From the NCBI GenBank assembly GCA_016219515.1, contig JACRMU010000004.1:1-53861 (forward strand): a stretch of DNA of 53,861 nt, given 5' to 3'. Positions 16,666-53,861 of the stretch are shown here, in pieces. The notes beneath the pieces are model-generated. The model ran no database searches and had not been told where the DNA came from. It worked only from the letters and a program-made list of their open reading frames with translations. The DNA is from Deltaproteobacteria bacterium. Lineage in GTDB: Bacteria; Desulfobacterota; Deferrimicrobia; Deferrimicrobiales; Deferrimicrobiaceae. The position numbers and the translations under genes are program-made. Within the stretch, counting starts at the first letter, position 1; every line of letters begins with the position of its first letter.

Positions 16666-16744
16666 GCCTGTACGGGTCCTCCTCCGGAGAGCAATGATGA
16701 TATTATCGCGTTATGCGCCGTCTTTCACAAGGAACCGCGCCCTG

Positions 16745-17590: not shown

Positions 17591-17660
17591 GTGCTCGCTT
17601 GCAACCATTCGGCGGCGTCTCCGATCGGCCGTCCCGAAAGGCGCTGCGCCTCCGGGCGTC

Positions 17661-18785: not shown

Positions 18786-18790
18786 AAGGT

Positions 18791-19684: not shown

Positions 19685-19694
19685 GAATCCCCCC

Positions 19695-20855: not shown

Positions 20856-20930
20856 GATAAACATTCGGCCGCGGACGCTTCGGCGGCTTCCCCAAGCGGG
20901 AGAGATCCGACGAGGAAGGAGCCGGCGGGA

Positions 20931-22163
20931 ATGGAGAAGGAAGGAAGAAACGGCGCTTCGGGCCCCGGCAGGGGAATTCCCATCGACCGGAGAAGCGCCC
21001 TTCGGCTCCTCGCCGCGGCTGCTGCAGCCATCGCGGCCAGGCCCGCGGTCCGCGGGGCGGAGACGTTCGCCGCGGCCGCCGCCCCCTCCCGCGGAGCCGG
21101 GGAAACCAGGCCTTTGGGCAGGACGGGGATCGCGGTATCCACCGTCGGCATGGGAGCGATGATCACCCGGGAATCCGACGTGATCCGGTACGCCGTCGAC
21201 CATGGGGTGAACTATGTCGACACCGCGGACTGCTACATGGGGGGAGAGAACGAACGGATCGTGGGACGCGCCCTCAAGGGAATCCGCAACAAGGTGATCC
21301 TTGCGTCGAAGGTCCACATCGCCCCCGTCGACCGGATGATCCAGTCCGTCGAGAAAAGTCTGAAGTCCCTCAACACCGACGTCATCGACATCATGCAGCT
21401 TCACGGGATCGGCACCGAGGGGGAGGTCGTCAACGGATATGCGCGCGAAGCCCTTCGGAAACTGATCGACCAGGGAAAGGTCCGCGTCCCAGGGGTGACC
21501 ACCCACAGCGGACAGGAAACGGTCGTACGGGCCGTGATGAAGCACGGATTCTACAAGACCGTCCTTGTCGCGTACAACTTCCGCTCCGATGCGGGGCTGA
21601 AGGCGGCCCTGCGCAAGGTCTTCGCCGGAGCGACCGGACTTTCCGCCGCGATCCGCGATGCCGGCGCCGCGGGGCTCGGGGTGATCGCCATGAAAACTCA
21701 AGCGGGGGGGTACACGATGGAACGGGGAGCGTTGAGCCCCCACCAGGCCGCTCTCGCGTGGGTCCTTGAAAACCCCGGGGTCGCAACCACGATCCCGAGC
21801 ATGGTCAGTTACGCCCAGGTAGACGAGAACCTTTCCGCGAGCGGGAAGCGGCTCGGCTGGGGAGGGAAGAAAGCTCTGGAACTGTACTCCCGGGCCATCG
21901 GGGACCGGCACTGCGGGCTTTGCGGACAGTGCAAGGGCTCCTGCCCCTCGGGGGTCGACGTCCAGGACGTCCTGCGGTCCCTGGCCTATTACGATGGGTA
22001 CGGGCAGGCGGACCTTGCGAACCGGTCGTATCGGGAGCTTGCGGACGGCCGGAACGCTCTTCCCTGCTTCTCCTGCGGCACCTGCGCGGTCCAATGCCGG
22101 CTGGGGCTTCCGGTGGGACGGCTTGCCCGCAGGGCGCACGGCCTGTTGTCGCGGACGGCGTGA
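20931..22163 (+). CDS. aldo/keto reductase with twin-arginine signal and C-terminal Cys-cluster (Fe-S) domain
   Basis: 410 aa. TAT-like IDRRSALRLLAAAAAAIAARP. AKR core (VNYVDTADCYMGGENERIVG, VILASKV, IDIMQLHG). C-terminal CGLCGQCKGSCP and CFSCGTCAVQC motifs. Confidence 0.85.
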   Translation: MEKEGRNGASGPGRGIPIDRRSALRLLAAAAAAIAARPAVRGAETFAAAAAPSRGAGETRPLGRTGIAVSTVGMGAMITRESDVIRYAVDHGVNYVDTADCYMGGENERIVGRALKGIRNKVILASKVHIAPVDRMIQSVEKSLKSLNTDVIDIMQLHGIGTEGEVVNGYAREALRKLIDQGKVRVPGVTTHSGQETVVRAVMKHGFYKTVLVAYNFRSDAGLKAALRKVFAGATGLSAAIRDAGAAGLGVIAMKTQAGGYTMERGALSPHQAALAWVLENPGVATTIPSMVSYAQVDENLSASGKRLGWGGKKALELYSRAIGDRHCGLCGQCKGSCPSGVDVQDVLRSLAYYDGYGQADLANRSYRELADGRNALPCFSCGTCAVQCRLGLPVGRLARRAHGLLSRTA

Positions 22164-35975: not shown

Positions 35976-37447
35976 TTGCACATCCGCGACATCCTGGCCC
36001 GGAACGCCCGGATCTATCCCGAACGCGTCGCCCTCGCCATGGGACGGGAAACCGTCACCTACCGGGAGCTGGCGGTCCGCGTGGCGCGGCGCGCATCGGA
36101 ACTGAAGGCCCAGGGCATCGGGAAAGGCGACCGGATCGCGGTCCTGATGCGCAACTCCCCCCTGTATGTGGAATTGCTGTACGCGATCACCTGCACCGGG
36201 GCCGTGATGCTGCCGCTCAACGAACAGCTGATCGCCCGGGAGCTTTCGGAGATCCTTCGCCACGCGGACGCCAAGGCCGTGCTTTTCTCCGAGGAGTTCC
36301 GCCGCGTGGCCGACCGGGTTCATGCCGGCCTGGCCTCCGATACCCGCTTCGTCGCCGTGGATGCGCAGCCCGCGGGAGCCGGATCCGGGGAGAAGGAGCC
36401 CGTTTGCTTCGGACTCCCGGCGGATGCCGCACCCTTTTCGGAATCCGACATCGCTCTCGTGGTCTACACCGGCGGCGTCTCCGGAACCCCCCGGGGGGCG
36501 ATGCTGTCCCACAGGAACCTGTCGGCCGCTTCCGCCTCCGCGGCGATGGAGCTCGGCCTGTCCCGCAACGACGTGTACCTCTCCTGCACGCCGCTGCCGT
36601 TCATGGCCGGGACGGGACGCCTGCTCCGGTTTCAGTACCTGGGGGGAACGGTCGTCATCCTGCCGGACTTCGAACCCGACCGGATGCATCCCGGTTCAAC
36701 CTCGCAACCCTGCGCATGGTCCTCTATGGCGGAACGGCGGTCCCCATCGAGCTGCAGAAACGGGCGATCCGGTTCTTCCGGTGCGGGCTGGTCCAGGCGT
36801 ATGGAATGGTCGAATCGGCGGGAATCCTGACATTCCTGCATCCCGAAGACCACTCCCTGGAGGAGAGCGCCCCCTACATGAGGAAGCTGATGTCGGTGGG
36901 CAAGGAGGCGATCGGGGTCGAGGTCCGGGTCGTCGACGAGGAGGGCGGGCAGATCTCCCCCCATCAGGTGGGCGAGATCGTCGCGCGCGGCCCGAACGTC
37001 TTCGAGGGGTATTTCCGCGACCCGGCGTACACCGCGTACGTGTTGCGGAACGGGTGGCTCTACACCGGCGACGTGGCTTCCGTGGACGAGGACGGGTACA
37101 TCTACATCGTCGACCGGAAGCGGGACTCGCTATCGGTCGGCGGGATCTGGGTCTATCCCCGGGAAATCGAGAACGTCATCGCGGAGCATCCCGCCGTGAA
37201 GGAGGCGGCCGTGATCGGGCGGTCCGACTATCTCCTGGGAGAGGTCCCCGTCGCCGTCGTCGCCCTGAAGGAGGGGGTGAAGGCCGACCCCGCCGACATC
37301 CTCTCCCATTGCCGGGACAACATGGCTCCCTTCAAGGTTCCCCGGTCGGTGGAGTTCATCTCCTCCCTTCCCAGGAACAGCCAGGGAAAGGTCCTGAAGG
37401 TGAAACTGAAGGAAAAAGCGGTTTCCGGGGCCAGCCCGCATTTCTAA
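35976..37447 (+). pseudogene. AMP-dependent acyl-CoA synthetase/ligase, disrupted (internal deletion plus frame change near 36683)
   Basis: TTG start behind GGAGG. The N-terminal part (frame of 35976) has VVYTGGVSGTPRGAMLSHRNL and reads sensibly to ..ILPDFEPDR. The family continues in the frame of ORF 36404..37447 from ..SRFNLATLRMVLYGGTAVP through YGMVESAG, WLYTGDVASVDEDGYIYIVDRKRD and PRNSQGKVLK. Confidence 0.75.
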
Positions 37448-41328: not shown

Positions 41329-42549
41329 TCAGGTGTTGTATCCCGCTTCTCCGTGCTGCGAAAGGTCCAGCCCCATGATCTCGTTCTCGGCCCCCACGCG
41401 AAGCCCCATGACCTTGTCCAGGACCTTCAACAGGCCATAGCTCACGACGAAGGAGTAGACGAGGATCGTCCCCGCCGCCAGCGCCTGGATGGCGAGCAGT
41501 TTGGGATTGCCGTAGAGCAAGCCGTTCGCGCCCCCGGCGTTGACCGCCGTCGTGGCGAACAGCCCCGTGGCCAGGGTGCCGAGCGTCCCTCCCACGCAGT
41601 GGACGCCGACGACGTCCAGCGAATCGTCGTAGCCAAGCCTCCCTTTCATCATCACGGCGACGTAGCAGACGAGGCCCGCCGTCAGGCCGATGGCGAGGGC
41701 GGCTGCCGGCTGCACGAACCCGGAAGCCGGGGTGATCGTGCCGAGCCCCGCGATGCACCCCGAAGCCGCGCCGAGCACGGTCGGCTTCCCGCGGTGGAAC
41801 CATTCGACGAACACCCAGGAAAGCGTCGCGGCGGCCGCGGCCATATGGGTGTTGACGAAGGCGCTCGTGGAGAGATCGCCTGCCGCAAGGGCGCTCCCCG
41901 CGTTGAACCCGAACCAGCCGAACCAGAGGATCGCCGCGCCGAGAACCGTCATGGGAAGGTTGTGCGGGGCCATGTTTTCCATGCCGAACCCCTTCCGCTT
42001 CCCCACGGCGATAGCGGCCGCGAGGGCGCTGACCCCCGCGGTGATGTGGACCACCGTGCCGCCGGCGAAATCCAGCACCCCCAGGTTGCGCAGCCATCCG
42101 CCGGTGCCCCATACCCAATGGGCGACGGGGTTGTAGACCAACAACGCCCACAAAAGAGTGAACACGAGATACGTGGAAAACTTGAACCGCTCGGCGAACG
42201 CGCCGCTGATCAGCGCCGGGGTGATGACCGCGAACATCATCTGGTAGATCATGAACGCCTGGTGGGGAACGGTGGCGGCGTACTCCTTGAAGGGAGCAAG
42301 CCCCACGCCGTTCAGCGCGAACCAGGAGAGGTCGCCGATCACGCCGCCGCAGTCGGGACCGAAGGAGAAGCTGTACCCGACGAGCATCCATTCCACGCTG
42401 ATCAATCCGAGTACGATAAACGACTGCATGACGGTACCCAGGATGTTCTTCTGCCGGACCATTCCACCATAGAAGAGCGCCAACCCGGGGGTCATGAGCA
42501 TGACGAGCGCTGCGGAGACGAGCAGCCAGGCGGTGTCGCCGGTGTTCAT
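41329..42549 (-). CDS. amtB: ammonium transporter (Amt family), copy 1
   Basis: ORF 41329..42606 trimmed to ATG 42549 (MNTGDTAWLLVSAALVMLMTPGLALFYGG). Amt signatures DFAGGTVVHITAG, WFGWFGFNAGS and VGVHCVGGTLG. Confidence 0.95.
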   Translation of the reverse strand: MNTGDTAWLLVSAALVMLMTPGLALFYGGMVRQKNILGTVMQSFIVLGLISVEWMLVGYSFSFGPDCGGVIGDLSWFALNGVGLAPFKEYAATVPHQAFMIYQMMFAVITPALISGAFAERFKFSTYLVFTLLWALLVYNPVAHWVWGTGGWLRNLGVLDFAGGTVVHITAGVSALAAAIAVGKRKGFGMENMAPHNLPMTVLGAAILWFGWFGFNAGSALAAGDLSTSAFVNTHMAAAAATLSWVFVEWFHRGKPTVLGAASGCIAGLGTITPASGFVQPAAALAIGLTAGLVCYVAVMMKGRLGYDDSLDVVGVHCVGGTLGTLATGLFATTAVNAGGANGLLYGNPKLLAIQALAAGTILVYSFVVSYGLLKVLDKVMGLRVGAENEIMGLDLSQHGEAGYNT

Positions 42550-42602
42550 ACCGATATCCTCCTCCAGCCGAGGTGATGTGGGGCCGATGGCCGAAAGGAA
42601 GC

Positions 42603-42617
42603 GCAATCCTCATGCCG
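42603..42617 (-). promoter_or_regulatory. sigma-54 (-24/-12) promoter candidate for amt copy 1
   Basis: The minus strand reads cGGCAT-GAGGA-TTGC, with correct GG-N10-GC spacing. It sits about 54 nt upstream of the ATG. An AT-rich tract and the 12-nt palindrome GACGTATACGTC lie further upstream. Confidence 0.6.
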
Positions 42618-42881: not shown

Positions 42882-44102
42882 CTACCAGTTGTAACCCGCC
42901 TCCCCGTGCACCGAAAGGTCGAGGCCCTGGATTTCGTCCTCCTTCGCGACCCGGAGCCCCATGGTCTTGTCGAGCACCTTCAGCAGCAGGAAGGTGACGG
43001 TGAAGGAGTATGCGAGGGTGACGACGACCGCCAGGGCCTGGATGGCGAGCAGCTTCGGGTTTCCGTAGAGCAAGCCGTTGGCGCCCCCGGCGTTGACCGC
43101 CGTCGTGGCGAACACTCCCGTCGCCAGCGCTCCGAGCGTGCCTCCCACGCAGTGGACGCCGACGACGTCCAGCGAATCGTCGTAGCCGAACTTCCCCTTC
43201 ATCATCACCGCGCCGTAGCAGACCGCGCCCGCCAGCAGGCCGATGGCGAGGGCTCCCATCGGCTGCACGAACCCCGCCGCGGGGGTGATCCCCACCAGGC
43301 CCGCGACGCACCCGGAGGCGGCGCCGAGCACGGTCGGCTTCCCGCGGTGGATCCACTCCGCGAACACCCAGGAAAGCGTCGCCATCGCCGCCGCCGAGTG
43401 GGTATTGACGAACGCGCTGGTGGCCAGGTCGCCCGCCGCAAGAGCGCTCCCCGCGTTGAACCCGAACCAGCCGAACCAGAGGATCGCCGCGCCGAGAACC
43501 GTCATGGGAAGGTTGTGCGGGGACATGTTGTCGGTTCCGAACCCCTTCCGCTTCCCGATGACGAGCGCCGCCGCGAGGGCGCTGACCCCCGAAGTGATGT
43601 GGACCACCGTGCCGCCGGCGAAGTCCAGCGCTCCCAGGTTGCGGATCCATCCGCCGATCCCCCACACCCAGTGGGCGACGGGGTTGTAGACCAGAAGGGC
43701 CCATAAAAGGGTGAACACGAGGAAGGTGGAAAACTTGAACCGCTCGGCGAACGCCCCGGTGATCAGCGCCGGGGTGATGACCGCGAACATCATCTGGTAG
43801 ATCATGAATGCCTGGTGGGGGACGGTGGCGGCGTAGTCCTTGAAGGGGGCAAGCCCCACGCCGTTCAGCGCGAACCAGGAGAGGTCGCCGATGATCCCGC
43901 CCCGGTCCGGCCCGAAGGAGAAGCTGTATCCGACGAGGATCCACTCCACGCTGATCAGCCCCAGGATGATGAAGGACTGCATGATCGTCCCCAGGATGTT
44001 CTTCCTTCTGACCATTCCTCCGTAGAAGAGCGCCAACCCCGGGGTCATGAGCATGACGAGCGCTGCGGAGACGAGCAGCCACGCCGTGTCGCCGGTATTC
44101 AT
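42882..44102 (-). CDS. amtB: ammonium transporter (Amt family), copy 2
   Basis: ORF 42882..44141 trimmed to ATG 44102. Also 406 aa and collinear with copy 1 without indels. Confidence 0.95.
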   Translation of the reverse strand: MNTGDTAWLLVSAALVMLMTPGLALFYGGMVRRKNILGTIMQSFIILGLISVEWILVGYSFSFGPDRGGIIGDLSWFALNGVGLAPFKDYAATVPHQAFMIYQMMFAVITPALITGAFAERFKFSTFLVFTLLWALLVYNPVAHWVWGIGGWIRNLGALDFAGGTVVHITSGVSALAAALVIGKRKGFGTDNMSPHNLPMTVLGAAILWFGWFGFNAGSALAAGDLATSAFVNTHSAAAMATLSWVFAEWIHRGKPTVLGAASGCVAGLVGITPAAGFVQPMGALAIGLLAGAVCYGAVMMKGKFGYDDSLDVVGVHCVGGTLGALATGVFATTAVNAGGANGLLYGNPKLLAIQALAVVVTLAYSFTVTFLLLKVLDKTMGLRVAKEDEIQGLDLSVHGEAGYNW

Positions 44103-44150
44103 GGGAAACCTCCTCGCTTCCAGGTGATGTGCCGACCGCATCGGAAGAGG

Positions 44151-44165
44151 GCAACCGCCGTGCCA
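44151..44165 (-). promoter_or_regulatory. sigma-54 (-24/-12) promoter for amt copy 2
   Basis: The minus strand reads TGGCAC-GGCGG-TTGC, a full match to the TGGCAC-N5-TTGC consensus. It sits about 49 nt upstream of the ATG. Confidence 0.75.
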
Positions 44166-44513
44166 ATCCTCTCTCCGCGTTATTCCCGGGGATTTCCCTC
44201 ATGTCCGCCGAATGACAGCAACACTATTGTCGCAAACACGACATTTACCGTTCTCCGCGCACCATCGGGATTTCCGGCGATCCGTGGGCCGGAACCTTCT
44301 CGCCCGATGGATTCGCGGGACATCGCAATCCCCCGAGGCGCAAGCGGGACCGTTTCTTGCGGATGGGATGCCGCCGAGCCCTTCGCTGTTTCTGACCCGG
44401 TCCCGGCGGATGCCGGGAAGGGTGCGCCCGATTTCCCTTGGTATGGAAGAAACGCATGCATTACAATTTTTCATGCGACAAACGACCTCCGTTTCTTCCC
44501 GCAAGGAGCCGCG

Positions 44514-46634
44514 ATGACCGAATCGTTCCACTCTTCCTGCATACAGGGGGCGAAAAGCGTCCTCTCCCTGGCCCGGGCATCCTTGTCCCACCAGCTCGCC
44601 GGGCGGGGAGGAAGCGCCCATCTCGGATACCCCGACACGGCGTACGAACTGCCGGTCGCGTTCGGCCTGACGGACCTGAAAGTGTCGACGCTCGCCGACG
44701 GGGAGAAGGTCCTCGATCTCGCGGAAGGGCTCCTTCGCAACGCTCCCACCCTGGAGAACGCTCTCGAGGCCGGCGCCGCCACCCTGCTGGCCGCCGACGT
44801 GCTCGGAGCTCTCTCCCACAAGGACGGGAACCCCTTTTCGCCGCCGTCGGTCGGGTTCGTCCCCGACTCCATCCTGCGCAAGCTGGGCATCTTCATGGTG
44901 GACGGAACCGTGCCGGGAGTCGCGGTGGCGATCGGCAGGGCCACCGACCCGGCGGCCGCCGCCGCCATGGTCCGCCAGTTCCAGGAAATCGGCCTCCTCG
45001 TCTTCCTGGCGGGGGACGTGGCCCAGCAGATGGAGAAGGCCGGCGTGAAGCTGGGAGACGATTTCAAGACGTTTCCGCTGGGCCCCCTCCCCGCGGTCAT
45101 CCACGCCGTCAATTTCGCCGTCCGGGCGGGCCTCACCTTCGGCGGCATCGGCCGCGGCCAGACGCAGGCGATGTACAACTATCTCTCCCAGCGGGTGAAG
45201 GCGTTCGTCTGCGCGCTGGGCCCCATGGACGAGATCGGGCTGGCGGTGATCGCGGGGGCGATGAAGGCCGGATTCCCGGTCCTTGCCGACCGGAACCTTC
45301 CGGAGATCCCCGGCGCGCTCCTGCGGAGCCCCGCGGGCGAGGAGATGGTCCGGGCCGGGATGGAGGCAAGAGGGATCAAGGCGAAGATCGTCAAGGTCCC
45401 CATCCCCATCGCGTTCGGGCCCGCCTACGAAGGCGAGCGGATCCGGAAATCGGACACCTACGCCGAGTTCGGCGGAGGCCGCGGGCCCGCCTACGAGCTG
45501 GTCGTTTCCGCCCCCCTTTCCGAGGTGCGGGACAAGGAGATCGTCGTCGTCGGCCCCGACATCCCCGATATGCCGAAGGGCGGGACGCTGCCGCTGGGGA
45601 TCGTCGTCACGGTCTCCGGGAACCGGATGCAGAAGGATTTCGAATCGGTGCTGGAGCAGCGCATCCACCGGATCGTTAACTACGGGGAAGGGACGATGCA
45701 CGTGGCCCCGCGGGACACCACATGGATCCGCGTCTCCTGCGAGGCGCAAGCCAAGGGGTTCCGGCTGGCGGACCTGGGGATGATGCTCTACGCCAAGATG
45801 CACGCCGACTTCGAGAACATCGTCGACCGGGTGTCCGTCACGATCCACACCCGCGAGGAGGACGTGCAGCGGGGGATGGCGTTCGCCAAGACCGTCTACG
45901 CCGAGCGCGACGCGCGGGCGAAAACGCTGACGGACGACACCGTCGAGGAGTTCTACTCCTGCACCCTGTGCCAGTCGTTCGCTCCGAACCACGTCTGCAT
46001 CGTCGCCCCCGAGCGGCTGGGGCTGTGCGGCGCGATCAACTGGCTCGACGGGAAGGCGGGCTACGAGATCACCCCCACCGGGCCGAACCAGCCGGTGATG
46101 AAGGGCGCGGTCCTCGACCCCGTGAAAGGCGCCTGGGACGGCGTGAACGCATTCGTCCGCGAGCACTCCCGGAACACGGTCCCGGGATTCAACCTCTACT
46201 CGATCATGGACGCTCCGATGACCTCCTGCGGCTGCTTCGAATGCATCCTCGCCCTGATCCCGGAGGCCAACGGCGTGATGGCGGTCAACCGGGAGTTCGA
46301 AGGAAGCGAAACGCCGTGCGGGATGGGGTTCTCCACGCTGGCCGGCTCGGTCGGAGGAGGGGCCCAGACACCGGGGTTCATGGGGGTGGGAAAGCATTAC
46401 CTTCTCAGCAAGAGGTTCCTCGCCGCAGAGGGCGGCCTCCCCCGCCTCGTCTGGATGACGAAAGAGATGAAGGAGTACCTGGGAGCGGACCTTGCCGCCC
46501 GGGCCGCCGAGATCGGCATGCCCGGCCTCGTCGACATGATCGCGGACGAAACGGTCGCGGTCACCCCCGAGCAGCTGCTCCTGCACCTGAAGAAAGTGGG
46601 GCACCCGGCGCTTTCGATGCCGCCGCTGTTATGA
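44514..46634 (+). CDS. acsB: acetyl-CoA synthase (CO-methylating; A-cluster subunit)
   Basis: This is the last 706 codons of track ORF 43815..46634, starting at ATG 44514 behind AAGGAG. GYPDTAYELPV near the N-terminus. A-cluster ligands SCTLCQSFAPNHVCIVAPERLGLCGAINWLDGKAG and the Cys-Gly-Cys Ni site MTSCGCFECI. Confidence 0.95.
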   Translation: MTESFHSSCIQGAKSVLSLARASLSHQLAGRGGSAHLGYPDTAYELPVAFGLTDLKVSTLADGEKVLDLAEGLLRNAPTLENALEAGAATLLAADVLGALSHKDGNPFSPPSVGFVPDSILRKLGIFMVDGTVPGVAVAIGRATDPAAAAAMVRQFQEIGLLVFLAGDVAQQMEKAGVKLGDDFKTFPLGPLPAVIHAVNFAVRAGLTFGGIGRGQTQAMYNYLSQRVKAFVCALGPMDEIGLAVIAGAMKAGFPVLADRNLPEIPGALLRSPAGEEMVRAGMEARGIKAKIVKVPIPIAFGPAYEGERIRKSDTYAEFGGGRGPAYELVVSAPLSEVRDKEIVVVGPDIPDMPKGGTLPLGIVVTVSGNRMQKDFESVLEQRIHRIVNYGEGTMHVAPRDTTWIRVSCEAQAKGFRLADLGMMLYAKMHADFENIVDRVSVTIHTREEDVQRGMAFAKTVYAERDARAKTLTDDTVEEFYSCTLCQSFAPNHVCIVAPERLGLCGAINWLDGKAGYEITPTGPNQPVMKGAVLDPVKGAWDGVNAFVREHSRNTVPGFNLYSIMDAPMTSCGCFECILALIPEANGVMAVNREFEGSETPCGMGFSTLAGSVGGGAQTPGFMGVGKHYLLSKRFLAAEGGLPRLVWMTKEMKEYLGADLAARAAEIGMPGLVDMIADETVAVTPEQLLLHLKKVGHPALSMPPLL

Positions 46635-47551
46635 CCGTCCCGCTACCGAAGCAGGCGTACCCCGGCCGCATCCTCCCCGTGACGCTTCCCGCCGGCCCGG
46701 GGGGAACGCCCGTGACCGTGGGCGGACAGAACGCCCTCTCCCTCGCACCGGAAGGAGAAAAGCCCAATGCCGCGGCCATCGGGATGGAGGTCCGGACGGG
46801 CGGAGGCGATCTCCCGCCGGCCCTGGCGAAGGCGTTCGAATGCAGGGCGACGGACCCGGTTTCTCTTGCGGGGGCGTGCGCGAACGACTGGGGGGCGCAG
46901 TTCCTTTTCCTCTCCCTCGACGGCTGCCATCCGGACGGCGGCGGTCAACCGGTGGAGGAAGGGGCAAGGATCGTCCATGAGGTCCTCGCCGCCGTCTCCT
47001 GCCCGGTGATCGTGGGCGGTTGCGGCGAGGAAGAAACCGACGCGAAGCTCTTCCCGGCCGTCGCGGAAAGCGCAGGCCGTCCCGTCTTCCTCTCGTACGC
47101 CGACGAAAAGAATTACCGCCTGGTGGGCGGCGCGGCCCTGGCGTACGGGCACGGGGTCGTCGCCTGGTCCCCGATCGACATCAACATGGCCAAGCAGGCG
47201 AACCTTCTCCTGTCGGACCTCGGGGTCCCCCCGGAAAGGATCCTCATCGATCCGCTGACCGGCGGGCTCGGATACGGCCTGGAGTACACCTACTCGATCG
47301 TCGAGCGGATCCGGCTGGCGGGGCTCTCGGGCGATGCCATGCTGGCGCGTCCCGTGTTGTGCCACCTCGGGGATGCGTGGAAGGCGCGGGAGGCGGTCGA
47401 CGCCTCCGAAACTTCCTGGGGGGACGCGGTCCTCCGCGGCCGCCGGTGGGAAGAAACCACCGGGTGGGCCTGCCTCGCCGCGGGCGCGGATCTCCTGGTA
47501 TTCCGGCACCCCGGGAACGTCGAGGCCTTCCGGGAGGCGGCGTGGCGCTGA
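46631..47551 (+). CDS. acsD: corrinoid iron-sulfur protein small subunit
   Basis: 306 codons. ATG overlaps the acsB stop (ATGA). TIM-barrel CFeSP small-subunit character (IDINMAKQANLLLSDLGVPPERILIDPLTGGLGYGLEYTYS). Confidence 0.88.
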   Translation: MTVPLPKQAYPGRILPVTLPAGPGGTPVTVGGQNALSLAPEGEKPNAAAIGMEVRTGGGDLPPALAKAFECRATDPVSLAGACANDWGAQFLFLSLDGCHPDGGGQPVEEGARIVHEVLAAVSCPVIVGGCGEEETDAKLFPAVAESAGRPVFLSYADEKNYRLVGGAALAYGHGVVAWSPIDINMAKQANLLLSDLGVPPERILIDPLTGGLGYGLEYTYSIVERIRLAGLSGDAMLARPVLCHLGDAWKAREAVDASETSWGDAVLRGRRWEETTGWACLAAGADLLVFRHPGNVEAFREAAWR

Positions 47552-48894
47552 CCGCCCTGGATATTTACAAGCTGCTCCCCAAGACCAACTGCAAGGACTG
47601 CGGCTTCCCCACCTGCCTCGCGTTCGCGATGCAGATGGCGGCGGGAAAGGCGGGGATCGACAAGTGCCCCCCCGCGTCCGAGGAGGCGAAGGCGGCGCTC
47701 GGGGCGGCCTCCGCTCCGCCGCTCCCCCGCATCGTCGTCGGCACCGGGGACCGCGCCGTCACCCTGGGCGACGAAGTGGTGCTGTTCCGCCACGAAAAGA
47801 CCTTTTACCACCCGACGGCGATCGCGATCTCGGTCTCCGACGCGCTCGGCGACGAGGCGCTCGAGGAGCGCCTGCGGAGCATCTCCGCCCTTTCCTTCGA
47901 GCGCGTGGGCCAGATCCTCGCGGTCGACATGGTCGCGGTCCGCTTCGACTCGGGCGATCCCGCGAGGTTCGCGAAAACCGCCTCCGCTTCGCTTGCGCGG
48001 TGCGGAAAGCCGCTCCTGCTCTCGGGGACGTGCGCGGCCCTTGCTGCGGCCATCCGGGAAGTGGGGGCCTCGCGTCCGCTCCTCCGCCCGCCGCCCGGGG
48101 AAACGGCGGCCGGTGCAGCGCTTGCCGCCGCAGAAAAACTCCCCCTCGCGGTTTCCGCCCGGGGGATCGAGGGGCTTGCCGCCGCGCTTGCGGCCGCGCG
48201 CGCCGCGGGGGCGACGGAGCTCGTCGCCGATCCGAAGCCCGCCGATGCGGCCGTCGCCGTCGCCGACTCCATCTTCATCCGGCGGCTCGCCATCGTCCAC
48301 CGGGCGCAGGAGATCGCCTACCCCACGGCGTTCGACCTCGGGCAGGGGTTCCCCCGGCCCTTCGAGGCCGCCTGCCTGCTCCTGTCGAAGTACGCGTCGC
48401 TCCTCGTGCTCGACACCGCGGACCCGGCGGAGATCTTCCCGCTGCTGACGCTGCGCCAGAACCTTTTCACCGACCCGCAGCGGCCGATCCAGGTGGATCC
48501 GGGAATCTACCCCATCGGAAAGATTTCCCCTTCCTCCCCCGTCCTCATCACCACCAATTTCTCCCTGACCTACTTCACGGTCCGCAGCGACGTGGAGGCG
48601 GCGAAGACCCCTGCCTACCTGCTGATCGCCGAGTGCGACGGGATGTCGGTCCTGACCGCATGGGCGGCGGGAAAGTTCACTTCCGAGAGCATCGCGGCGC
48701 TGCTGGCCGAAAGCGGAATCTCCGGAAAGGTGGATCACCGCACGCTCATCCTCCCCGGGATGGTGGCGCGCCTCTCCGGGAAGATCGAGGAGCTCTCGCA
48801 ATGGCGCGTCCTCGTGGGGCCGCAGGAGTCCTCCGCACTGCCCTCCTACCTCCGGCGGCTGCCGCCCGCCGCGTTCGTTCCCGTACATGGGTGA
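47542..48894 (+). CDS. acsC: corrinoid iron-sulfur protein large subunit
   Basis: GTG 47542 sits behind GGGAGG and overlaps acsD by 10 nt. N-terminal 4Fe-4S motif LTALDIYKLLPKTNCKDCGFPTCLAFAMQMAAGKAGIDKCP. C-terminal corrinoid-binding region (AECDGMSVLTAWAAGKF). Confidence 0.9.
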   Translation: MALTALDIYKLLPKTNCKDCGFPTCLAFAMQMAAGKAGIDKCPPASEEAKAALGAASAPPLPRIVVGTGDRAVTLGDEVVLFRHEKTFYHPTAIAISVSDALGDEALEERLRSISALSFERVGQILAVDMVAVRFDSGDPARFAKTASASLARCGKPLLLSGTCAALAAAIREVGASRPLLRPPPGETAAGAALAAAEKLPLAVSARGIEGLAAALAAARAAGATELVADPKPADAAVAVADSIFIRRLAIVHRAQEIAYPTAFDLGQGFPRPFEAACLLLSKYASLLVLDTADPAEIFPLLTLRQNLFTDPQRPIQVDPGIYPIGKISPSSPVLITTNFSLTYFTVRSDVEAAKTPAYLLIAECDGMSVLTAWAAGKFTSESIAALLAESGISGKVDHRTLILPGMVARLSGKIEELSQWRVLVGPQESSALPSYLRRLPPAAFVPVHG

Positions 48895-50464
48895 CCCGGG
48901 AAAAGGCATCCTGCGCTTCCTCCCGGAAAGCGCGTCCGTGCGCCTCTCTCCGGGAGACACGGTCCTGGCCCACGCCATCCGCTCCCTTTCCCCGGAAGAC
49001 CTTCGCGCGGGGATCCGGCTTGCCTGCCGCTGCCTCCCGCTGGAAGGGGAGGTCGCCGTCACCGTCCTCCCGGAGAGCCGCCCCGCCCGCCTGTCCGCTT
49101 ACATCGAGGGGAAGGAAATGGCGGAAGACGGCCCGTTCCTCCCCCTGCACGTCGTCCCCCGAAAGGGGATTCCGCTGGGCGCGGCCCTGGACGCGGGGAC
49201 CAGCACGCTGGCGGGGGCGCTCATCGACCTGCGGAACGGGTCGGTCCTCGCCCGGACCGCGGCCGACAACCCGCAGATGGCCTGCGGGGAGGACCTGATC
49301 TCCCGGATCGTCTTCGGAGAGGAGAACCCCGACGGGTTTCCCCTCCTGCGCAACCTCCTCCTGACGGGGATCGAGCAGGTGATTTCCGGCCTGGTCCGCT
49401 CCTCTTCCGTGGAAGGGGAGATCGTCGAAGTCTCCGCCGCGGGAAACACGGTCATCTCCCACATCCTTTACGGCCTGTCCCCCTCGCCGGTGCGCCGGCC
49501 GCCCCACCGGCCGGTCCTCAAGGAGTATCCCGTGAAAACGGGGAAGGACCTCGGCATCGTTTCCGCGCCGTCCGCCCGGTTCCGGATCTTCCCCTCCATC
49601 GGCGGGTTCGTCGGAGGGGACATCGTTTCCGGGATCCTGGCCTCCGGGATGCACCGGGAAGAGGCCGTGACCCTTCTGTACGACGTGGGGACCAACGGCG
49701 AGGTGGTGCTGGGCAACCGGGAGTTCCGGATCGCCTGCTCCTCGTCCGCCGGCCCCGCATTCGAGGGGGGAGAAGTGGCGTGCGGGATGCGCGCCTATCC
49801 CGGGGCGATCGAATCGGTCCGCATCGATCCCGTGCGCCTTACGGCCGAATGGACCGTGATCGGCGGAGGGAAACCGGCCGGAGTGTGCGGCTCGGGGATC
49901 CTCGACCTGTGCGCGGAGCTGTTCCGGGCCGGGCTGATCGACCGCGCCGGCCGATTCGTCCCCCGCGGGAGAGCCCCCTTCCGGGAGACGGACCGGGGGA
50001 CGGCGTTCGTCGTCGTCCGCGCGGAGCGGAGCGCCACCGGAGCGGACATCGTCTTCACGGCATCCGACCTGAAAAGCGTCGTACGGACCAAGGCCGCGCT
50101 GTGCGCCGCCGCCGATGCCCTCCTCCGGGCAGTGGGGCTTCCGCGGGACAAGGTGGAACGGGTCTGCATCGCGGGAGGATTCGGCAACTTCCTCGACCTG
50201 CGGTCCGCGCAGACGCTCGGGGTCTTCCCGCCCTTTCCGATGAAAAAGTTCGTTCTCCTGGGCAACGCGTCGCTGGCGGGCGCGATCGGAGCGATTCGCA
50301 ACCGGAAGCGGTGGGAGGAGGCGTGCACGCTCTGCTCCTCCACCGACTATCACGACCTTTCCTCCGACCAGGGGTTCATGGAGCTTTACCAGCGCGCGCT
50401 TTTCATCCCGCACACGGACGCCGAGAGCTATCGCGGAAATCCCCTGCCGGAGACGGCCACGTGA
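48887..50464 (+). CDS. RACo-like ASKHA ATPase (reductive activator of corrinoid Fe-S protein) lacking the 2Fe-2S Cys motif
   Basis: 525 aa. ATG overlaps acsC by 8 nt. ASKHA phosphate and adenosine motifs LDAGTSTLAG, YDVGTNGEVVLG and IAGGFGNFLD. The N-terminal ~60 aa keep only ..RLACRC of the ferredoxin domain. Confidence 0.85.
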   Translation: MGDPGKGILRFLPESASVRLSPGDTVLAHAIRSLSPEDLRAGIRLACRCLPLEGEVAVTVLPESRPARLSAYIEGKEMAEDGPFLPLHVVPRKGIPLGAALDAGTSTLAGALIDLRNGSVLARTAADNPQMACGEDLISRIVFGEENPDGFPLLRNLLLTGIEQVISGLVRSSSVEGEIVEVSAAGNTVISHILYGLSPSPVRRPPHRPVLKEYPVKTGKDLGIVSAPSARFRIFPSIGGFVGGDIVSGILASGMHREEAVTLLYDVGTNGEVVLGNREFRIACSSSAGPAFEGGEVACGMRAYPGAIESVRIDPVRLTAEWTVIGGGKPAGVCGSGILDLCAELFRAGLIDRAGRFVPRGRAPFRETDRGTAFVVVRAERSATGADIVFTASDLKSVVRTKAALCAAADALLRAVGLPRDKVERVCIAGGFGNFLDLRSAQTLGVFPPFPMKKFVLLGNASLAGAIGAIRNRKRWEEACTLCSSTDYHDLSSDQGFMELYQRALFIPHTDAESYRGNPLPETAT

Positions 50465-51501
50465 AAAACGATCTTCCCCCGTTCCTTCCCACGGGCGTCG
50501 GCAGCCTGCCGCACACCGATCCGGAGGCCGCGGTGCGGCTGGTCCTTTCGGCCTTCCGCGACGTCCCCTGCTGGCCCCAGCTCCCCCGCAGGACCTTTCT
50601 CGAAACCATGTACATCCAGTACGCGGCGGGGCTGCCGGGGGCGGTCATCGACGGGGAGAAGCTCTTTGTCGATGGAGGGGAAACCGTCCAGGAGGATGCG
50701 GAGGCCTTCTACGAACGGTTCCTCATGGAAGATGCCTCCTCCTTCGCGATCTCCACGGAGCGCGCGGCGGGGCTATACGCCCTCCTCTCCTCCGGGAAGG
50801 GGCCGTATCCCGCCGTCAAGGGACAGGTCACGGGCCCCGTCTCCTTCGGCCTGATGACCACCGACCGGGGGAAGAAGCCGCTCTTCTACGATCCGATGGG
50901 CCGGGACATCCTGGTAAAACACCTTCTGCGGGTCGCCCAGTGGCAGGTTGCGGAGCTTTCGCGCCTCTCGCCCAACGTCATCCTGGTGCTGGACGAGCCG
51001 TATCTCGCATCGGTGGGGTCCGCCATCCTCTCCCTCGCGAAGGAGGAGGTGATCGGCTGCCTCGACGAGATCTTCGACGGCCTGCCGGGGACGCGGTGCG
51101 GAATCCACTGCTGCGCGAACACCGATTGGGGGCTCGTCCTCTCCTCGCGGGTGGAATACCTCTCCTTCGACGCCTACGAGTACGCGGACTCCCTGCTGCT
51201 GTATCCGAAGGAGGTGAAGGCGTTCCTCGGCCGCGGGGGGAAGCTCGCCTTCGGGATCGTCCCCACGTCCGCGCAAGGGATCCGCGCGGAGACCCCGGAG
51301 ACGCTGGCGGCCCGGATGGATGCGATCCTCGGGAAATTCGAATCGCGCGGGATCGGACGCGATGCGGTCATCCGCGCAACCCTCCTCACTCCCGCCTGCG
51401 GACTGGGCACCCTTCCCGTGGAGGATGCGGAGCGGGCGATCCTTCTGACCGCCGAGCTCTCCGACCTCCTGCGGCATCGCCACGGAGCGGCCGCGGGATG
51501 A
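50461..51501 (+). CDS. MetE-C-terminal-like (core-MetE type) Zn methyltransferase
   Basis: 346 codons. GTG overlaps the upstream stop (GTGA). VILVLDEPYLASVG (cf. IQIDEPAL). Zn-ligand pattern GIHCCAN (His-x-Cys) and LLTPACGLG (cf. PDCGL). No second (folate-binding) MetE repeat. Confidence 0.7.
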   Translation: MKNDLPPFLPTGVGSLPHTDPEAAVRLVLSAFRDVPCWPQLPRRTFLETMYIQYAAGLPGAVIDGEKLFVDGGETVQEDAEAFYERFLMEDASSFAISTERAAGLYALLSSGKGPYPAVKGQVTGPVSFGLMTTDRGKKPLFYDPMGRDILVKHLLRVAQWQVAELSRLSPNVILVLDEPYLASVGSAILSLAKEEVIGCLDEIFDGLPGTRCGIHCCANTDWGLVLSSRVEYLSFDAYEYADSLLLYPKEVKAFLGRGGKLAFGIVPTSAQGIRAETPETLAARMDAILGKFESRGIGRDAVIRATLLTPACGLGTLPVEDAERAILLTAELSDLLRHRHGAAAG

Positions 51502-52247
51502 GCCTTCTGATCGCCGTCGCGGGAAAGGGGGGGGTGGGAAAGACCACCTGCTCCGCGCTCCTGCTGCGCGCGCTGCTCGCTTCCGGGGTCCGCCCGCTGC
51601 TGGCGGTGGACGCCGACCCCAACGCCAATCTCCACGTGCTCCTGGGGTTCCCGTCCCCGAAGGGGCTGGGATCGGTCCGCGAAGAGCTCCTGGAGGGGCC
51701 CGGCGGAGCGGCCTCCAAGGAAGAGCTCCTCGAGGCGATGGTCCAGCAACGGGTCGTGGAAGGGAACGACGTCGACCTCATCGCGATGGGCCGGGGCGAG
51801 GGGCCTGGCTGCTACTGCTTCGTGAACAACCTCCTGCGCCGGTCTCTTTCGCGGCTCGCGGGAGGATACGCCGCGGTCGTCGTCGACAACGAGGCCGGGA
51901 TGGAGCACCTCTCCCGGCGCAACCTGCGCAGGATCGACCACCTGGTCCTGGTCGCCGACCCTTCCCCGCGGGGGATGTCCGCCGCCTGCGCCATCCGGGA
52001 TCTTGCCGCGGACCTGTCCCTTCCCGTCGGAAAGAGCTGGCTCCTGCTGAACCGGCCGTACTCCGCGGGCGACGGCGGGGATGCGCCGTCCCTTCCCTTC
52101 CCCCTGCTCGCCGCGATCCCGCACGACCCGTCCCTGCCGGCCTGGGAGGCGGACGGCCGCTCTTTCCTCGACCTGGGGGACGGCTCTCCGGCCGCTTCCT
52201 GCATGGCCGGCGCGATCCGCAACCTCCTTGCCGGGAAGGCGCGATGA
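51498..52247 (+). CDS. cooC: CooC/AcsF-type Ni-insertion accessory ATPase
   Basis: 249 aa. ATGA overlap with the upstream gene. Deviant Walker A AGKGGVGKTT and the CxC metal motif GPGCYCF. Confidence 0.9.
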   Translation: MSLLIAVAGKGGVGKTTCSALLLRALLASGVRPLLAVDADPNANLHVLLGFPSPKGLGSVREELLEGPGGAASKEELLEAMVQQRVVEGNDVDLIAMGRGEGPGCYCFVNNLLRRSLSRLAGGYAAVVVDNEAGMEHLSRRNLRRIDHLVLVADPSPRGMSAACAIRDLAADLSLPVGKSWLLLNRPYSAGDGGDAPSLPFPLLAAIPHDPSLPAWEADGRSFLDLGDGSPAASCMAGAIRNLLAGKAR

Positions 52248-52921
52248 AGATTCTCTTCTCGGTGCAGGGACGATACGGGGAGCGGATCGCGGAAAATGTC
52301 CGCGCGAACGGACCGGCGGGCTGGGAAACCTCGGTGCTCAAGCTCCCCGCGCGCCTCCCTCTCGTGATCGACGACCCGGAGGAGATCCTTCCCGGCGCTT
52401 TGCCCGCGGCGGACCTGCTGGTTTCCCTCCACGAGAGCCCGGGGGCTGCCGAGCTGATCCCCGACATCGCCGCGCGGTGCGGCGCCCGGGCCGTCCTGGC
52501 CGCCGTGGACGACCGGACCGTCTGCCCGACGGGCCTGGAGAACCAGGTCCGGAAGCGGCTCGCCGCCATGGGAGTCGCGAACGCCTTCCCGCGCCCGCTC
52601 TGCGGGTTCGACGGCGGGCCGGACCCGCTGCTCCGCGAATTCGCGGCGAACTTCGGCCGGCCGAAGTTCCGGATCGCGCGGGACGGCGACCGCGTGGCGT
52701 CCGTGGAAGTGCTGCGGGACGCCCCGTGCGGATCGGCGAAGTTCGTCGCCTCCATCCTCGAGGGGGTCCGTGTCCCGGAGGCGTCCGATACCGGCGCGCT
52801 GCGCCACCACCATCATCCCTGCCTGGCGTCGATGGAGATCGACCCCGACCTGCAGGACACGATCCTGCACCTGTCCGGATACATCGTCCGCGCCGCGATC
52901 AAGTCGGCATTGAAGGAATAA
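52244..52921 (+). CDS. DUF166-family protein (annotated in some archaea as putative thymidylate synthase)
   Basis: 225 aa. ATGA overlap with cooC. Starts MKILFSVQGRYGERIAENV. Five Cys (CGARA, VCPTG, LCGFD, PCGSA, HPCLAS) and an HHHH run. The family assignment is from memory of DUF166 N-termini. Confidence 0.65.
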   Translation: MKILFSVQGRYGERIAENVRANGPAGWETSVLKLPARLPLVIDDPEEILPGALPAADLLVSLHESPGAAELIPDIAARCGARAVLAAVDDRTVCPTGLENQVRKRLAAMGVANAFPRPLCGFDGGPDPLLREFAANFGRPKFRIARDGDRVASVEVLRDAPCGSAKFVASILEGVRVPEASDTGALRHHHHPCLASMEIDPDLQDTILHLSGYIVRAAIKSALKE

Positions 52922-52935
52922 AGAGGAAAGCCCTT

Positions 52936-53861
52936 CTACGCTATTTCCCGGGAACGGTCGAGGACTTCCCGCACCATGCGGGTCAGCTTGTCTGCGCGGT
53001 ACGGCTTGGGCAGGAACGCGGACGCCCGCGAGGTACCCCTCGACGCGTGCCCGCTGGAGAGAATCACCTTCGCGTGCGGGTCCAGCGTGCGAATGCGGGC
53101 CAGGACCTCGGTCCCCGACAGGTGCGGCATCGTCAGGTCCAGGATCACGAGGTCGATCCGGTCCCGCAGATCGAGGTAGAGGTCGATCGCCTGCTGGCCG
53201 TCGACCGCGGTCACGACGGAATATCCATGGACCTCCAGGACCTGCTGCGCGAGGCTCCGGATCATCTCCTCGTCGTCCACGAGGAGGATCGTCTCCTTCC
53301 ACGTTCTCATCCTGGCCGCTTCCGGACTCTGGAGCTTTTCCTCTTCCGCCTTTTCTTCCGCCCGGGGCAGGTACGCATGGAACGTCGTCCCCTTCCCCGG
53401 CTGGCTCTCGAGATTGACCCATCCCTCGTGCTGCTTGATGATGCCGTACACCGTGGAAAGCCCGAGCCCGGTGCCCCGCCCCAGCTTCTTCGTGGTGAAG
53501 AACGGCTCGAACACCCGGCGCTGCGTCGCCTCGTCCATCCCCGTCCCGTTGTCGGAAATCGACACGACGACGAAATCCCCCTTGCGCGCGTACGGGTACT
53601 CCCTTCGGTACTCGTCCCCGACGGAGGCATTTCTCGTGACGACCTGTATCCGGTATCCTCCGGGAGGCGGATCGTCCTTGTGTCCTCCCTCCAGGCGCTC
53701 CATGATCGCGTCCCTGGCGTTCACGCAGAGGTTCATCATCACCTGGTGCATCTGGTTGGGGTCGGCCACGGCATGCCACAAACCGTTCGAGGAGCAGATC
53801 TCCATCTCGATCCGCCGGTCGATGGTTTGCGCGAACAGGTCCACGCCCTCCCTCCCCACCT
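52936..53861 (-). CDS. hybrid sensor histidine kinase / response regulator (C-terminal part; 5' end beyond the window)
   Basis: The frame is open to the window edge. HATPase boxes MNLCVNARDAI, DNGTGMD and GTGLGLS. REC domain ILLVDDEEMI..ILDLTMPHLSG..LPKP. Confidence 0.85.
   Translation of the reverse strand, partial: VGREGVDLFAQTIDRRIEMEICSSNGLWHAVADPNQMHQVMMNLCVNARDAIMERLEGGHKDDPPPGGYRIQVVTRNASVGDEYRREYPYARKGDFVVVSISDNGTGMDEATQRRVFEPFFTTKKLGRGTGLGLSTVYGIIKQHEGWVNLESQPGKGTTFHAYLPRAEEKAEEEKLQSPEAARMRTWKETILLVDDEEMIRSLAQQVLEVHGYSVVTAVDGQQAIDLYLDLRDRIDLVILDLTMPHLSGTEVLARIRTLDPHAKVILSSGHASRGTSRASAFLPKPYRADKLTRMVREVLDRSREIA

Follow-up and report, generated by a model that had tools for sequence, protein, structure and literature searches.

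Dehalococcoides mccartyi has an incomplete Wood-Ljungdahl pathway that, according to Zhuang 2014 (as cited in PMC7005905), Deobald 2020 and Price 2021, combines acetyl-CoA synthase (ACS, the product of acsB) with the two subunits of the corrinoid iron-sulfur protein (CFeSP, AcsC and AcsD) and a short methionine synthase called core-MetE or MesB. This bacterium lacks carbon monoxide dehydrogenase (CODH), the methyltransferase AcsE and MetF, and labelling has shown that the methyl group of its methionine derives from that of acetate (PMC7005905, PMC7857596). Its MesB uses methylcobalamin and does not use methyl-tetrahydrofolate (PMC7005905). For free methylcobalamin the Dehalococcoides enzyme has a Km of about 240 uM. 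In some methanogens mesB forms operons with acsC and acsD, and the linkage of MesB to CFeSP has been read as a sign that CFeSP is the methyl donor (PMC7857596). A further described system concerns the accessory genes of the pathway, as transposon fitness data from Methanococcus maripaludis indicate that CooC2 and the adjacent DUF166 protein are both needed for CODH/ACS-dependent autotrophy, and a clean deletion of the DUF166 gene was complemented in trans (bioRxiv 10.1101/2024.03.05.583561). Here we describe an 8.4-kb operon that brings these elements together. It occupies positions 44514 to 52921 on the + strand of a stretch of 53,861 nucleotides from a Deferrimicrobiaceae genome (contig JACRMU010000004.1 of assembly GCA_016219515.1), which we call the window and whose numbering is used throughout, and it combines genes for ACS, CFeSP and a MesB-type protein in a window in which we found no CODH gene. 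The source clade, Candidatus Deferrimicrobiaceae, is that of candidate phylum MBNT15, or Candidatus Deferrimicrobiota. Our analysis suggests that the operon probably draws on acetyl-CoA for the methyl group of methionine, in a folate-independent manner.

Gene content and layout of the operon

The seven genes follow one another in the order acsB, acsD, acsC, RACo, mesB (encoding a MetE-like protein of 346 amino acids), a cooC-type ATPase gene and a DUF166 gene, as read from the table of open reading frames (ORFs) and from Pfam and NCBIfam matches. All six junctions overlap, with ATGA at 46631, 51498 and 52244, GTGA at 50461, 10 shared nucleotides at 47542 and 8 at 48887; the original prediction, which had been made from the letters of the window without database searches, had described seven overlapping genes on one strand with these same coordinates and junctions. 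Taken together with a single conserved promoter-like site and the lack of an internal terminator, both described below, the six overlapping junctions indicate that the locus is most likely one transcription unit.

The first gene, acsB (44514-46634, +), encodes a full-length bacterial ACS of 706 amino acids that scores 924 bits against NF040764 (cutoff 800) and has the full-length architecture of three Pfam domains (PF18537, PF03598 and PF19436). It aligns at 736 bits with the ACS of Carboxydothermus hydrogenoformans, residues 9-706 lying on residues 24-728 of 7zkj_B with all A-cluster cysteines aligned, and at 703 bits with the ACS of Moorella thermoacetica. Its A-cluster ligands are complete (C483-x2-C486-x8-C495-x9-C505 and C572-G-C574), and an exact-sequence look-up of the protein returned no record. 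The length of 706 amino acids was considered as a marker of a CODH-less ACS and rejected, since the CODH-bound ACS of Clostridium autoethanogenum has 708. The start codon of acsD (46631-47551, +) shares an ATGA with the acsB stop; its product, the CFeSP small subunit of 306 amino acids, has a CdhD-type barrel, matches PF03599 and passes NF003376 marginally, at 286 bits against a cutoff of 280. The large subunit of 450 amino acids is encoded by acsC (47542-48894, +), which overlaps acsD by 10 nucleotides; it scores 506 bits against NF003195 (cutoff 306) and combines a [4Fe-4S] motif at its N-terminus with a CdhD-type, corrinoid-binding domain, with matches to PF04060 (the Fe-S motif) and PF03599. 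The metal motifs pointed out at the outset, namely the full set of AcsB ligands, the AcsC Fe-S motif of PF04060 and a CxC pair in the CooC-type protein (C105-x-C107), are all present. The identities of genes 2 and 4, AcsD and RACo, and the loss of a RACo motif described below come on top of the original prediction.

The product of the fifth gene, mesB (50461-51501, +), has no match above threshold in Pfam, in NCBIfam or, by phmmer, among PDB sequences, and a profile of 42 MesB relatives found no PDB match either. Against Meth_synt_2 (PF01717) it scores 11.6 bits (E 0.16; gathering threshold 21), and this over the zinc-site region only; 9 of the 42 family members match PF01717 at E<1, the best at E 2.5e-5, so that the kinship of MesB with MetE is visible at the fold level only. 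An AlphaFold2 (AF2) model built on the alignment of the 42 relatives is a single barrel (mean predicted local distance difference test score, pLDDT, 94.6), and its top 22 Foldseek matches are all cobalamin-independent methionine synthases, comprising full-length MetE as well as the short Shewanella protein 3rpd, at E 4e-9 to 1e-6. They are followed by an MtaA-type methyltransferase (4ay7) and then by UroD. With its 346 amino acids the protein lies within the limit of 386 or fewer used to define MesB, and one MetE-like catalytic barrel makes up the whole of it, the folate-binding Meth_synt_1 domain being absent.

The zinc ligands of this barrel, H216, C218, D237 and C313, are invariant in the 42 relatives and kept in 81-82 of the 82 sequences of a larger alignment. 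They match H215, C217, D236 and C312 of the core-MetE from D. mccartyi CBDB1, an enzyme of 343 amino acids with known biochemistry in which Asp replaces the canonical Glu of MetE (PMC7005905). Homocysteine contacts have been mapped on D. mccartyi 195 MesB at positions 15, 69 and 177 (PMC7857596), and positions 15 and 177 correspond to S15 and D178 of the window protein, found in 78 and in 82 of the 82 sequences, respectively. The family as a whole comprises 441 clusters at 50% identity (E<1e-30), nearly all of about 345 amino acids, and the nearest relatives outside the own clade of the protein come from Anaerolineae and Dehalococcoidia, are 42-48% identical and bear the NCBI name 'methionine synthase'. 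The published score criterion for MesB is at least 173 bits to D. mccartyi DET0516 (130 bits in a broad search); scored against homologues from metagenome-assembled genomes (MAGs) of Dehalococcoidaceae/Dehalococcoidales, and not against DET0516 itself, the window protein reaches 289-295 bits at 43-45% identity, and it reaches 324-329 bits against other Chloroflexota. The definition also asks for AcsC and AcsD in the same genome, and here both are encoded in the same operon. Judged from its fold and its conserved residues, gene 5 encodes a core methionine synthase of the MesB type, for which we predict methyl-CFeSP-dependent activity, that is, transfer of a methyl group from methyl-corrinoid to homocysteine. 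The label 'core-MetE-like' given to it in the original prediction was right, as both the match to MetE barrels and the agreement of zinc ligands with the D. mccartyi enzyme attest, and the family is now named MesB (PMC7857596).

None of the seven operon products matches Prismane/CODH or Pterin_bind in Pfam, and among the approximately 37 other ORFs of the window, which encode transporters, regulators, cell-wall and central-metabolism functions, Pfam detected no CODH, AcsE, MTHFR/MetF, FTHFS/Fhs or THF_DHG_CYH/FolD. Probes for CooS, AcsE and MetF taken from other loci were likewise negative by tblastn across the window and 12 MBNT15 loci (about 220 kb in total); the CooS probe was positive in two clusters of the ordinary kind (L084 and L085). 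The claim that the seven ORFs include neither a CODH nor a pterin-binding methyltransferase, and that no fhs, folD or metF lies nearby, was thus borne out in the window by Pfam and, for CooS, AcsE and MetF, by tblastn as well. Where the Wood-Ljungdahl pathway is present, acsA and acsB are normally adjacent, as in L084 and L085, and the features of such a canonical acs cluster, a Ni-CODH gene near acsB together with AcsE, metF, fhs and folD, are missing from the window. This finding is in line with the report that an MBNT15 genome of 100% completeness, SHF-111, contains neither formate-tetrahydrofolate ligase (Fhs) nor a complete CODH/ACS (PMC9386147); other MBNT15 MAGs are also without a complete Wood-Ljungdahl pathway. 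Genomes of this phylum encode a complete oxidative tricarboxylic acid (TCA) cycle; SHF-111 has it in full and so does not need ACS for the oxidation of acetyl-CoA.

The cooC/acsF-like gene (51498-52247, +) encodes a MinD-type ATPase of 249 amino acids (PF01656 and PF13614) with a P-loop, GKGGVGKT, at residues 9-16 and with C105-Y-C107, and the protein probably inserts nickel into the A-cluster of ACS. Its identity is 47% to a RACo-adjacent CooC from an Anaerolineales Wood-Ljungdahl cluster (L066), 36% to a CooS-adjacent CooC (L063) and 31% to the second CooC of L066, a comparison that includes no reference AcsF. That it is nearer to the RACo-adjacent than to the CooS-adjacent CooC fits an AcsF-like role at the A-cluster of ACS, and Gregg et al. 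are said to have found in 2016 that the role of AcsF is specific to ACS.

The last gene (52244-52921, +) encodes a DUF166 protein of 225 amino acids, which matches PF02593 over its full length (162.7 bits against a threshold of 24.4; E 1e-47) and scores 61 bits, below the cutoff of 200, against the model of the DfsP selenoprotein subfamily (NF041372). The JGI label of the family, 'thymidylate synthase', looks like a legacy mislabel. The residues C162-G, H188-H189-x-x-P192-C193, D205-T206 and H209 are invariant, and this Cys/His set looks like a probable metal site. An AF2 model of the protein (pLDDT 96) found no fold match in the PDB, the best hit (E 5.6e-3, template modelling score 0.35) covering a generic Rossmann-like half. 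DUF166 also opens ordinary bacterial clusters of the Chloroflexi type, as in L085, where the gene (6056-6841) is followed by those for HMA, CooS, AcsB, AcsD and AcsC and, further on, RACo, and it occurs together with MetF, CooS and AcsB in L084 (2912-3652). A DUF166 gene beside ACS genes is therefore not new, but the absence of a CODH gene from the cluster is. The protein is likely to be an accessory factor of ACS or CODH/ACS, and if CODH is truly absent, the role of CooC and DUF166 would fall on the ACS A-cluster or on CFeSP and not on the CODH C-cluster, which would narrow the possible role of this uncharacterised family.

RACo (48887-50464, +), also called AcsV-like, is predicted to be the ATP-dependent reductive activator of CFeSP. 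Its product of 525 amino acids matches PF14574 (the C-terminal ASKHA ATPase domain, E 8e-85) and PF17651 (the middle domain, E 3e-43) and scores 386 bits against the NCBIfam AcsV model, under the strict cutoff of 800. Pfam detected no Fer2 match in the window protein, that is, no N-terminal plant-type [2Fe-2S] ferredoxin domain. Relative to a 99.9%-identical Logan contig (L001), the gene carries an in-frame deletion of 99 nucleotides, or 33 codons, with its junction at 48985/48986. The L001 protein is 558 amino acids long and includes 'LSPCGGEGRCGKCRV', and the deletion takes out 'GVPILSPCGGEGRCGKCRVVVSGDVAGGDDPWA' and, with this segment, three of the four [2Fe-2S] cysteines (the C-x4-C-x2-C part). 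This motif is kept in L001 and in all 10 MBNT15 RACo orthologues. A direct repeat at the junction was looked for and is absent. The deletion is either a real strain variant, which would have impaired corrinoid reactivation, or an assembly artefact.

Both ends of the operon lie within the window, as had been proposed. A divergent amt gene (ammonium transporter, PF00909; 42882-44141, -) stands upstream, across a gap of 372 nucleotides from acsB, and a convergent gene for a hybrid histidine kinase/response regulator (52936-53859, -) lies downstream, 14 nucleotides past the operon TAA at 52921. A promoter-like site of the sigma-70 type, TTGGTA-18 nucleotides-TACAAT, is found at 44438-44467 (+), about 47 nucleotides 5' of the acsB start, and is followed by an AAGGAG ribosome-binding site; it is the sole match of its kind within 44000-53100. 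Seven of eight MBNT15 loci keep a TTACAAT box and an AAGGAG/AGGGAG ribosome-binding site 5' of acsB, and these two elements make up all that is conserved in this upstream region. Terminator-like matches in the operon region do not rise above shuffled background, and no internal terminator was found there. An S-adenosylmethionine (SAM) or B12 riboswitch 5' of acsB was considered and rejected, as the window has no Rfam match at the gathering threshold and 44100-44560 returned noise only (E at least 1).

Elsewhere in the window, an AMP-binding (acyl-CoA ligase-like) gene at 35976-37447 (+) is split across two frames by a frameshift or a sequencing error, with profile positions 2-243 in 35976-36830 and positions 283-384 plus AMP-binding_C in 36404-37447. 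Two ORFs at 1769-2794 (-; 342 amino acids) and 18647-19765 (-; 373 amino acids) have a coding-like GC content at third codon positions and no Pfam match at E 1e-3.

Conservation and related loci

To place the operon among its relatives, one genome per GTDB species was searched with a MesB profile, and the seven window proteins were compared by tblastn with the 80 best MesB loci. The same genes in the same order were present in all 12 Deferrimicrobiaceae loci (L003-L012, L022), as far as their contigs reach, at 62-91% amino acid identity, a conservation far beyond chance, and the seven-gene order was found in none of the 68 other loci, which are mostly from Chloroflexota. In a neighbour-joining tree the 12 Deferrimicrobiaceae MesB sequences group together as a single clade, and close homologues carry the names 'Candidatus Deferrimicrobium', 'Deferrimicrobiaceae' or those of unclassified 'Deltaproteobacteria' MAGs. 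The chromosomal setting is conserved as well, with PIG-L, YchF and an HD-GYP regulator upstream and with two amt genes inserted in the lineage of the window. These tandem amt genes (41329-42606 and 42882-44141, both -) separate the conserved PIG-L/YchF block from acsB, we saw no glnK/PII gene beside them in the window, and in the relative L003 their place is taken by an ORF of 283 amino acids that has no Pfam match. L003 also has a cbb3 oxidase cluster (ccoN, ccoO, ccoQ, ccoP, ccoG and fixH; 16638-21044) about 4 kb 3' of the oxygen-sensitive ACS operon.

Two loci from other lineages share the core of the operon. In a Heimdallarchaeota MAG (L087; GCA_014730365.1, 1793-14467) acsB, whose product again has 706 amino acids, is followed by acsD, acsC, RACo, mesB and cooC, with 37-41% identity to the window proteins, and the cluster continues on the same strand, with gaps of at most 26 nucleotides, into genes for HcyBio (PF01837), an AbpE-like protein, asd and aspartokinase. 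We take HcyBio to be a sulfur-incorporating homocysteine-biosynthesis enzyme of anaerobes. The AcsB of this locus is of the bacterial type, though the bin is archaeal, with 37% GC. In the second locus (L086; GCA_030602715.1, 3896-12351) the order is acsD-acsC-RACo-mesB-cooC-metK-ahcY, and no acsB was found within 8 kb. CODH, AcsE and MetF are absent within 8 kb of both loci. The recurrence of a six- or five-gene core with methionine and SAM neighbours suggests that the CODH-less cassette is a recurring module, and its linkage to homocysteine, asd, aspartokinase, metK and ahcY genes points specifically to methionine. The idea that only MBNT15 has this gene order was dropped for the six-gene core once these two loci had been found; within the best 80 MesB loci the full order is confined to MBNT15. 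In other loci mesB lies among genes of the full pathway, with AcsE and MetF in L066, with MetF and AcsE in L092 and with CooS in L063, and in four further lineages mesB has no linkage to acs genes.

A possible route from acetyl-CoA to methionine

Our results lead us to propose that AcsB would cleave acetyl-CoA to CoA, CO and a methyl group, which would pass onto the Co(I) of AcsC/AcsD. MesB would then move the methyl group from CH3-Co(III)-CFeSP to zinc-activated homocysteine, forming methionine and regenerating Co(I). RACo would re-reduce any Co(II)-CFeSP in an ATP-driven reaction, while the CooC/AcsF-like ATPase and DUF166 might mature the nickel A-cluster of ACS or otherwise keep ACS working, and CO would be released as a by-product. 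The original prediction, that the locus is an acetyl-CoA-to-methyl module and not a carbon-fixation cluster, gains support from its context, that is, from the identity of MesB, from the conservation of the operon in 12 of 12 loci, with no CODH, AcsE or MetF in about 220 kb, from the linkage seen in L087 and L086 and from the report on SHF-111 (PMC9386147), and this context also points to methionine as the product.

Several observations weigh against this proposal and temper our confidence in it. Direct transfer from CFeSP to MesB has so far only been speculated upon (PMC7005905) or predicted (PMC7857596). MesB has been found only in strict anaerobes (Price et al. 2021, PMC7857596), and MBNT15 genomes encode aa3, cbb3 and bd oxidases, so that an oxygen-sensitive Ni-Fe-S route would be workable only under anoxia. 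We saw no enzyme for the disposal of CO. The absence of CODH, AcsE and MetF covers the window and about 10 kb around the operon in 12 loci, which is part of each genome only, and the statement in PMC9386147 is brief and concerns a different MBNT15 species. Finally, loss of the [2Fe-2S] ligands of RACo means that the copy in the window may be impaired or its assembly wrong.

The absence data bear most directly on the idea of a Wood-Ljungdahl pathway that is merely split, with CODH, AcsE, MetF, Fhs and FolD encoded elsewhere, the operon taking part in the synthesis or oxidation of acetyl-CoA and MesB forming a side branch on methyl-CFeSP, as in acetogens and sulfate reducers. That MesB lies within complete Wood-Ljungdahl clusters of other lineages (L066, L092 and L063), that DUF166 heads canonical CooS-AcsB clusters and that our data on CODH, AcsE and MetF are limited to the window and the locus surroundings would all agree with it. 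Yet CODH, AcsE and MetF are absent from the 53.9-kb window and from about 10 kb around the operon in each of 12 MBNT15 genomes, whereas an acsA beside acsB is usual in organisms with this pathway; SHF-111 has neither Fhs nor a complete CODH/ACS, other MBNT15 MAGs have no complete pathway, and these bacteria encode a complete TCA cycle for the oxidation of acetyl-CoA, all of which makes a split pathway unlikely. A somewhat smaller probability attaches to the operon being in decay or inactive in this strain through the loss of the RACo [2Fe-2S] site, or to the deletion being an assembly artefact of no biological meaning. Three of the four cluster cysteines are deleted in the window only, with L001 and all other orthologues intact, and a second window gene, the AMP-binding ligase, is frameshifted; however, the six other operon genes are intact with all their motifs, the deletion keeps the reading frame and does not touch the ASKHA ATPase or middle domain of RACo, and near-identical population variants carry the full-length gene, so we regard this explanation as improbable.

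Two further explanations concern what MesB does. The MesB-like protein could methylate a thiol besides homocysteine, or be one of several outlets of methyl-CFeSP, in which case the operon would be a general methyl-donor module. We consider this quite improbable: although some MesB paralogues and distant homologues may differ in function (Price et al. 2021, PMC7857596), the region equivalent to Glu484 of MetE is variable in MesB (PMC7857596) and the Pfam Meth_synt_2 score is below threshold, the homocysteine contacts S15 and D178 and the four zinc ligands are conserved, the protein reaches about 290 bits and 43-45% identity to Dehalococcoidaceae MesB, and methionine and SAM genes surround the clusters of other lineages. 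Alternatively, the flow could run in reverse, the MesB-like enzyme demethylating a methyl-thioether or sulfonium compound (methionine, dimethyl sulfide or the dimethylsulfoniopropionate type) onto CFeSP, from which ACS would form acetyl-CoA with environmental CO and CoA. The reactions of ACS and CFeSP are reversible, methanogens transfer methyl groups from thiols to a corrinoid in the MtsA/MtsB system, and the fold of MesB is similar to that of the MtaA-type methyltransferase 4ay7 as well. Against such a reversal stand the lack of both a CO source and a CODH, the fact that the closest characterised relative is a methionine synthase, the conservation of S15, D178 and the HCDC zinc site, and the linkage elsewhere to homocysteine-synthesis, asd, aspartokinase, metK and ahcY genes, which fits the production of methionine and not its demethylation; we therefore give this last alternative very little weight.

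Returning to the proposal that the operon makes methionine methyl groups from acetyl-CoA, a wider picture is conceivable, which we offer tentatively. The CODH-less cassette acsB-acsD-acsC-RACo-mesB-cooC, joined by DUF166 in MBNT15, might be a portable and dedicated machine for the folate-independent transfer of the acetyl-CoA methyl group to methionine that has spread to, or persisted in, lineages as distant as Deferrimicrobiota, an Asgard MAG and, as a shorter version, a further MAG. It might even be the sole methionine synthase of the respiratory and probably facultatively anaerobic MBNT15 bacteria, which would then be CO emitters, and its CooC-DUF166 pair might serve the ACS A-cluster or CFeSP and not the CODH C-cluster. 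If the proposed route is true, widespread bacteria of sediment and peat would produce CO. As every function of the route is apparently present by gene content in 8.4 kb, the operon is also convenient for heterologous reconstitution.

Comparison with known systems

The original prediction regarded the combination of genes in one coupled operon as undescribed, and this stood in part. Our search of the full-text literature found no description of the MBNT15 operon or of a CODH-less acsB...mesB-cooC cassette, and so the layout itself was not found, but the link between MesB and CFeSP and the mesB-acsCD operons (PMC7857596) as well as the cooC-DUF166 pair (bioRxiv 10.1101/2024.03.05.583561) had been published. 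The operon layout is thus undescribed, unusually complete and located in an unexpected phylum, but does not amount to a new kind of system.

With the canonical acs clusters of M. thermoacetica and C. hydrogenoformans the operon shares a full-length AcsB with identical A-cluster ligands, CFeSP, RACo and CooC-type parts; it differs from them in lacking acsA/cooS and acsE and in containing an inserted mesB. As in the CooC2-DUF166 pair of M. maripaludis (Day et al. 2024), a cooC paralogue and a DUF166 gene are adjacent and co-oriented beside ACS genes, although the archaeal pair stands next to a complete CODH/ACS and the pair in the window accompanies an ACS cluster that has no CODH gene. The physical linkage of mesB to CFeSP genes is common to the operon, the mesB-acsCD operons and the bacterial Wood-Ljungdahl clusters that include MesB. 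The organisms with these other operons and clusters, however, possess CODH as well as a complete C1 branch, which makes methyl-CFeSP an intermediate of the pathway there, whereas the cluster in the window includes ACS along with a reactivase and maturation genes of its own and lacks CODH, AcsE and MetF. The L087 and L086 clusters share six and five core genes with the window in identical order. They have no DUF166, are 37-44% identical and run on into homocysteine, asd and aspartokinase genes or into metK and ahcY, while the MBNT15 operon stops after DUF166. The coupling of all genes in one operon, together with the fusion of the core to homocysteine and SAM-cycle genes, is the strongest kind of genomic evidence for the predicted direct transfer from CFeSP to MesB.

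The closest parallel is D. mccartyi, which likewise combines ACS and CFeSP with a short MetE-like enzyme bearing an H-x-C...D...C zinc site, has no CODH, AcsE or MetF, and for which the same flow has been proposed, from acetyl-CoA's methyl group through CFeSP to homocysteine with CO as the by-product. The differences are that the MesB of the window is only 43-45% identical to that of Dehalococcoidaceae, that MBNT15 bacteria are predicted facultative anaerobes with oxidases and belong to another phylum, Candidatus Deferrimicrobiota, and that all functions, including RACo, CooC and DUF166, are here in one coupled operon, whereas the mesB operon of D. mccartyi contains metK and ahcY (PMC7005905). 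A route that had been proposed only for Dehalococcoides is thus most likely encoded in a single transcription unit of a soil or sediment MBNT15 bacterium, and the Dehalococcoides-type use of ACS, for methyl supply and not for carbon fixation, would extend to another phylum whose metabolism is very different.

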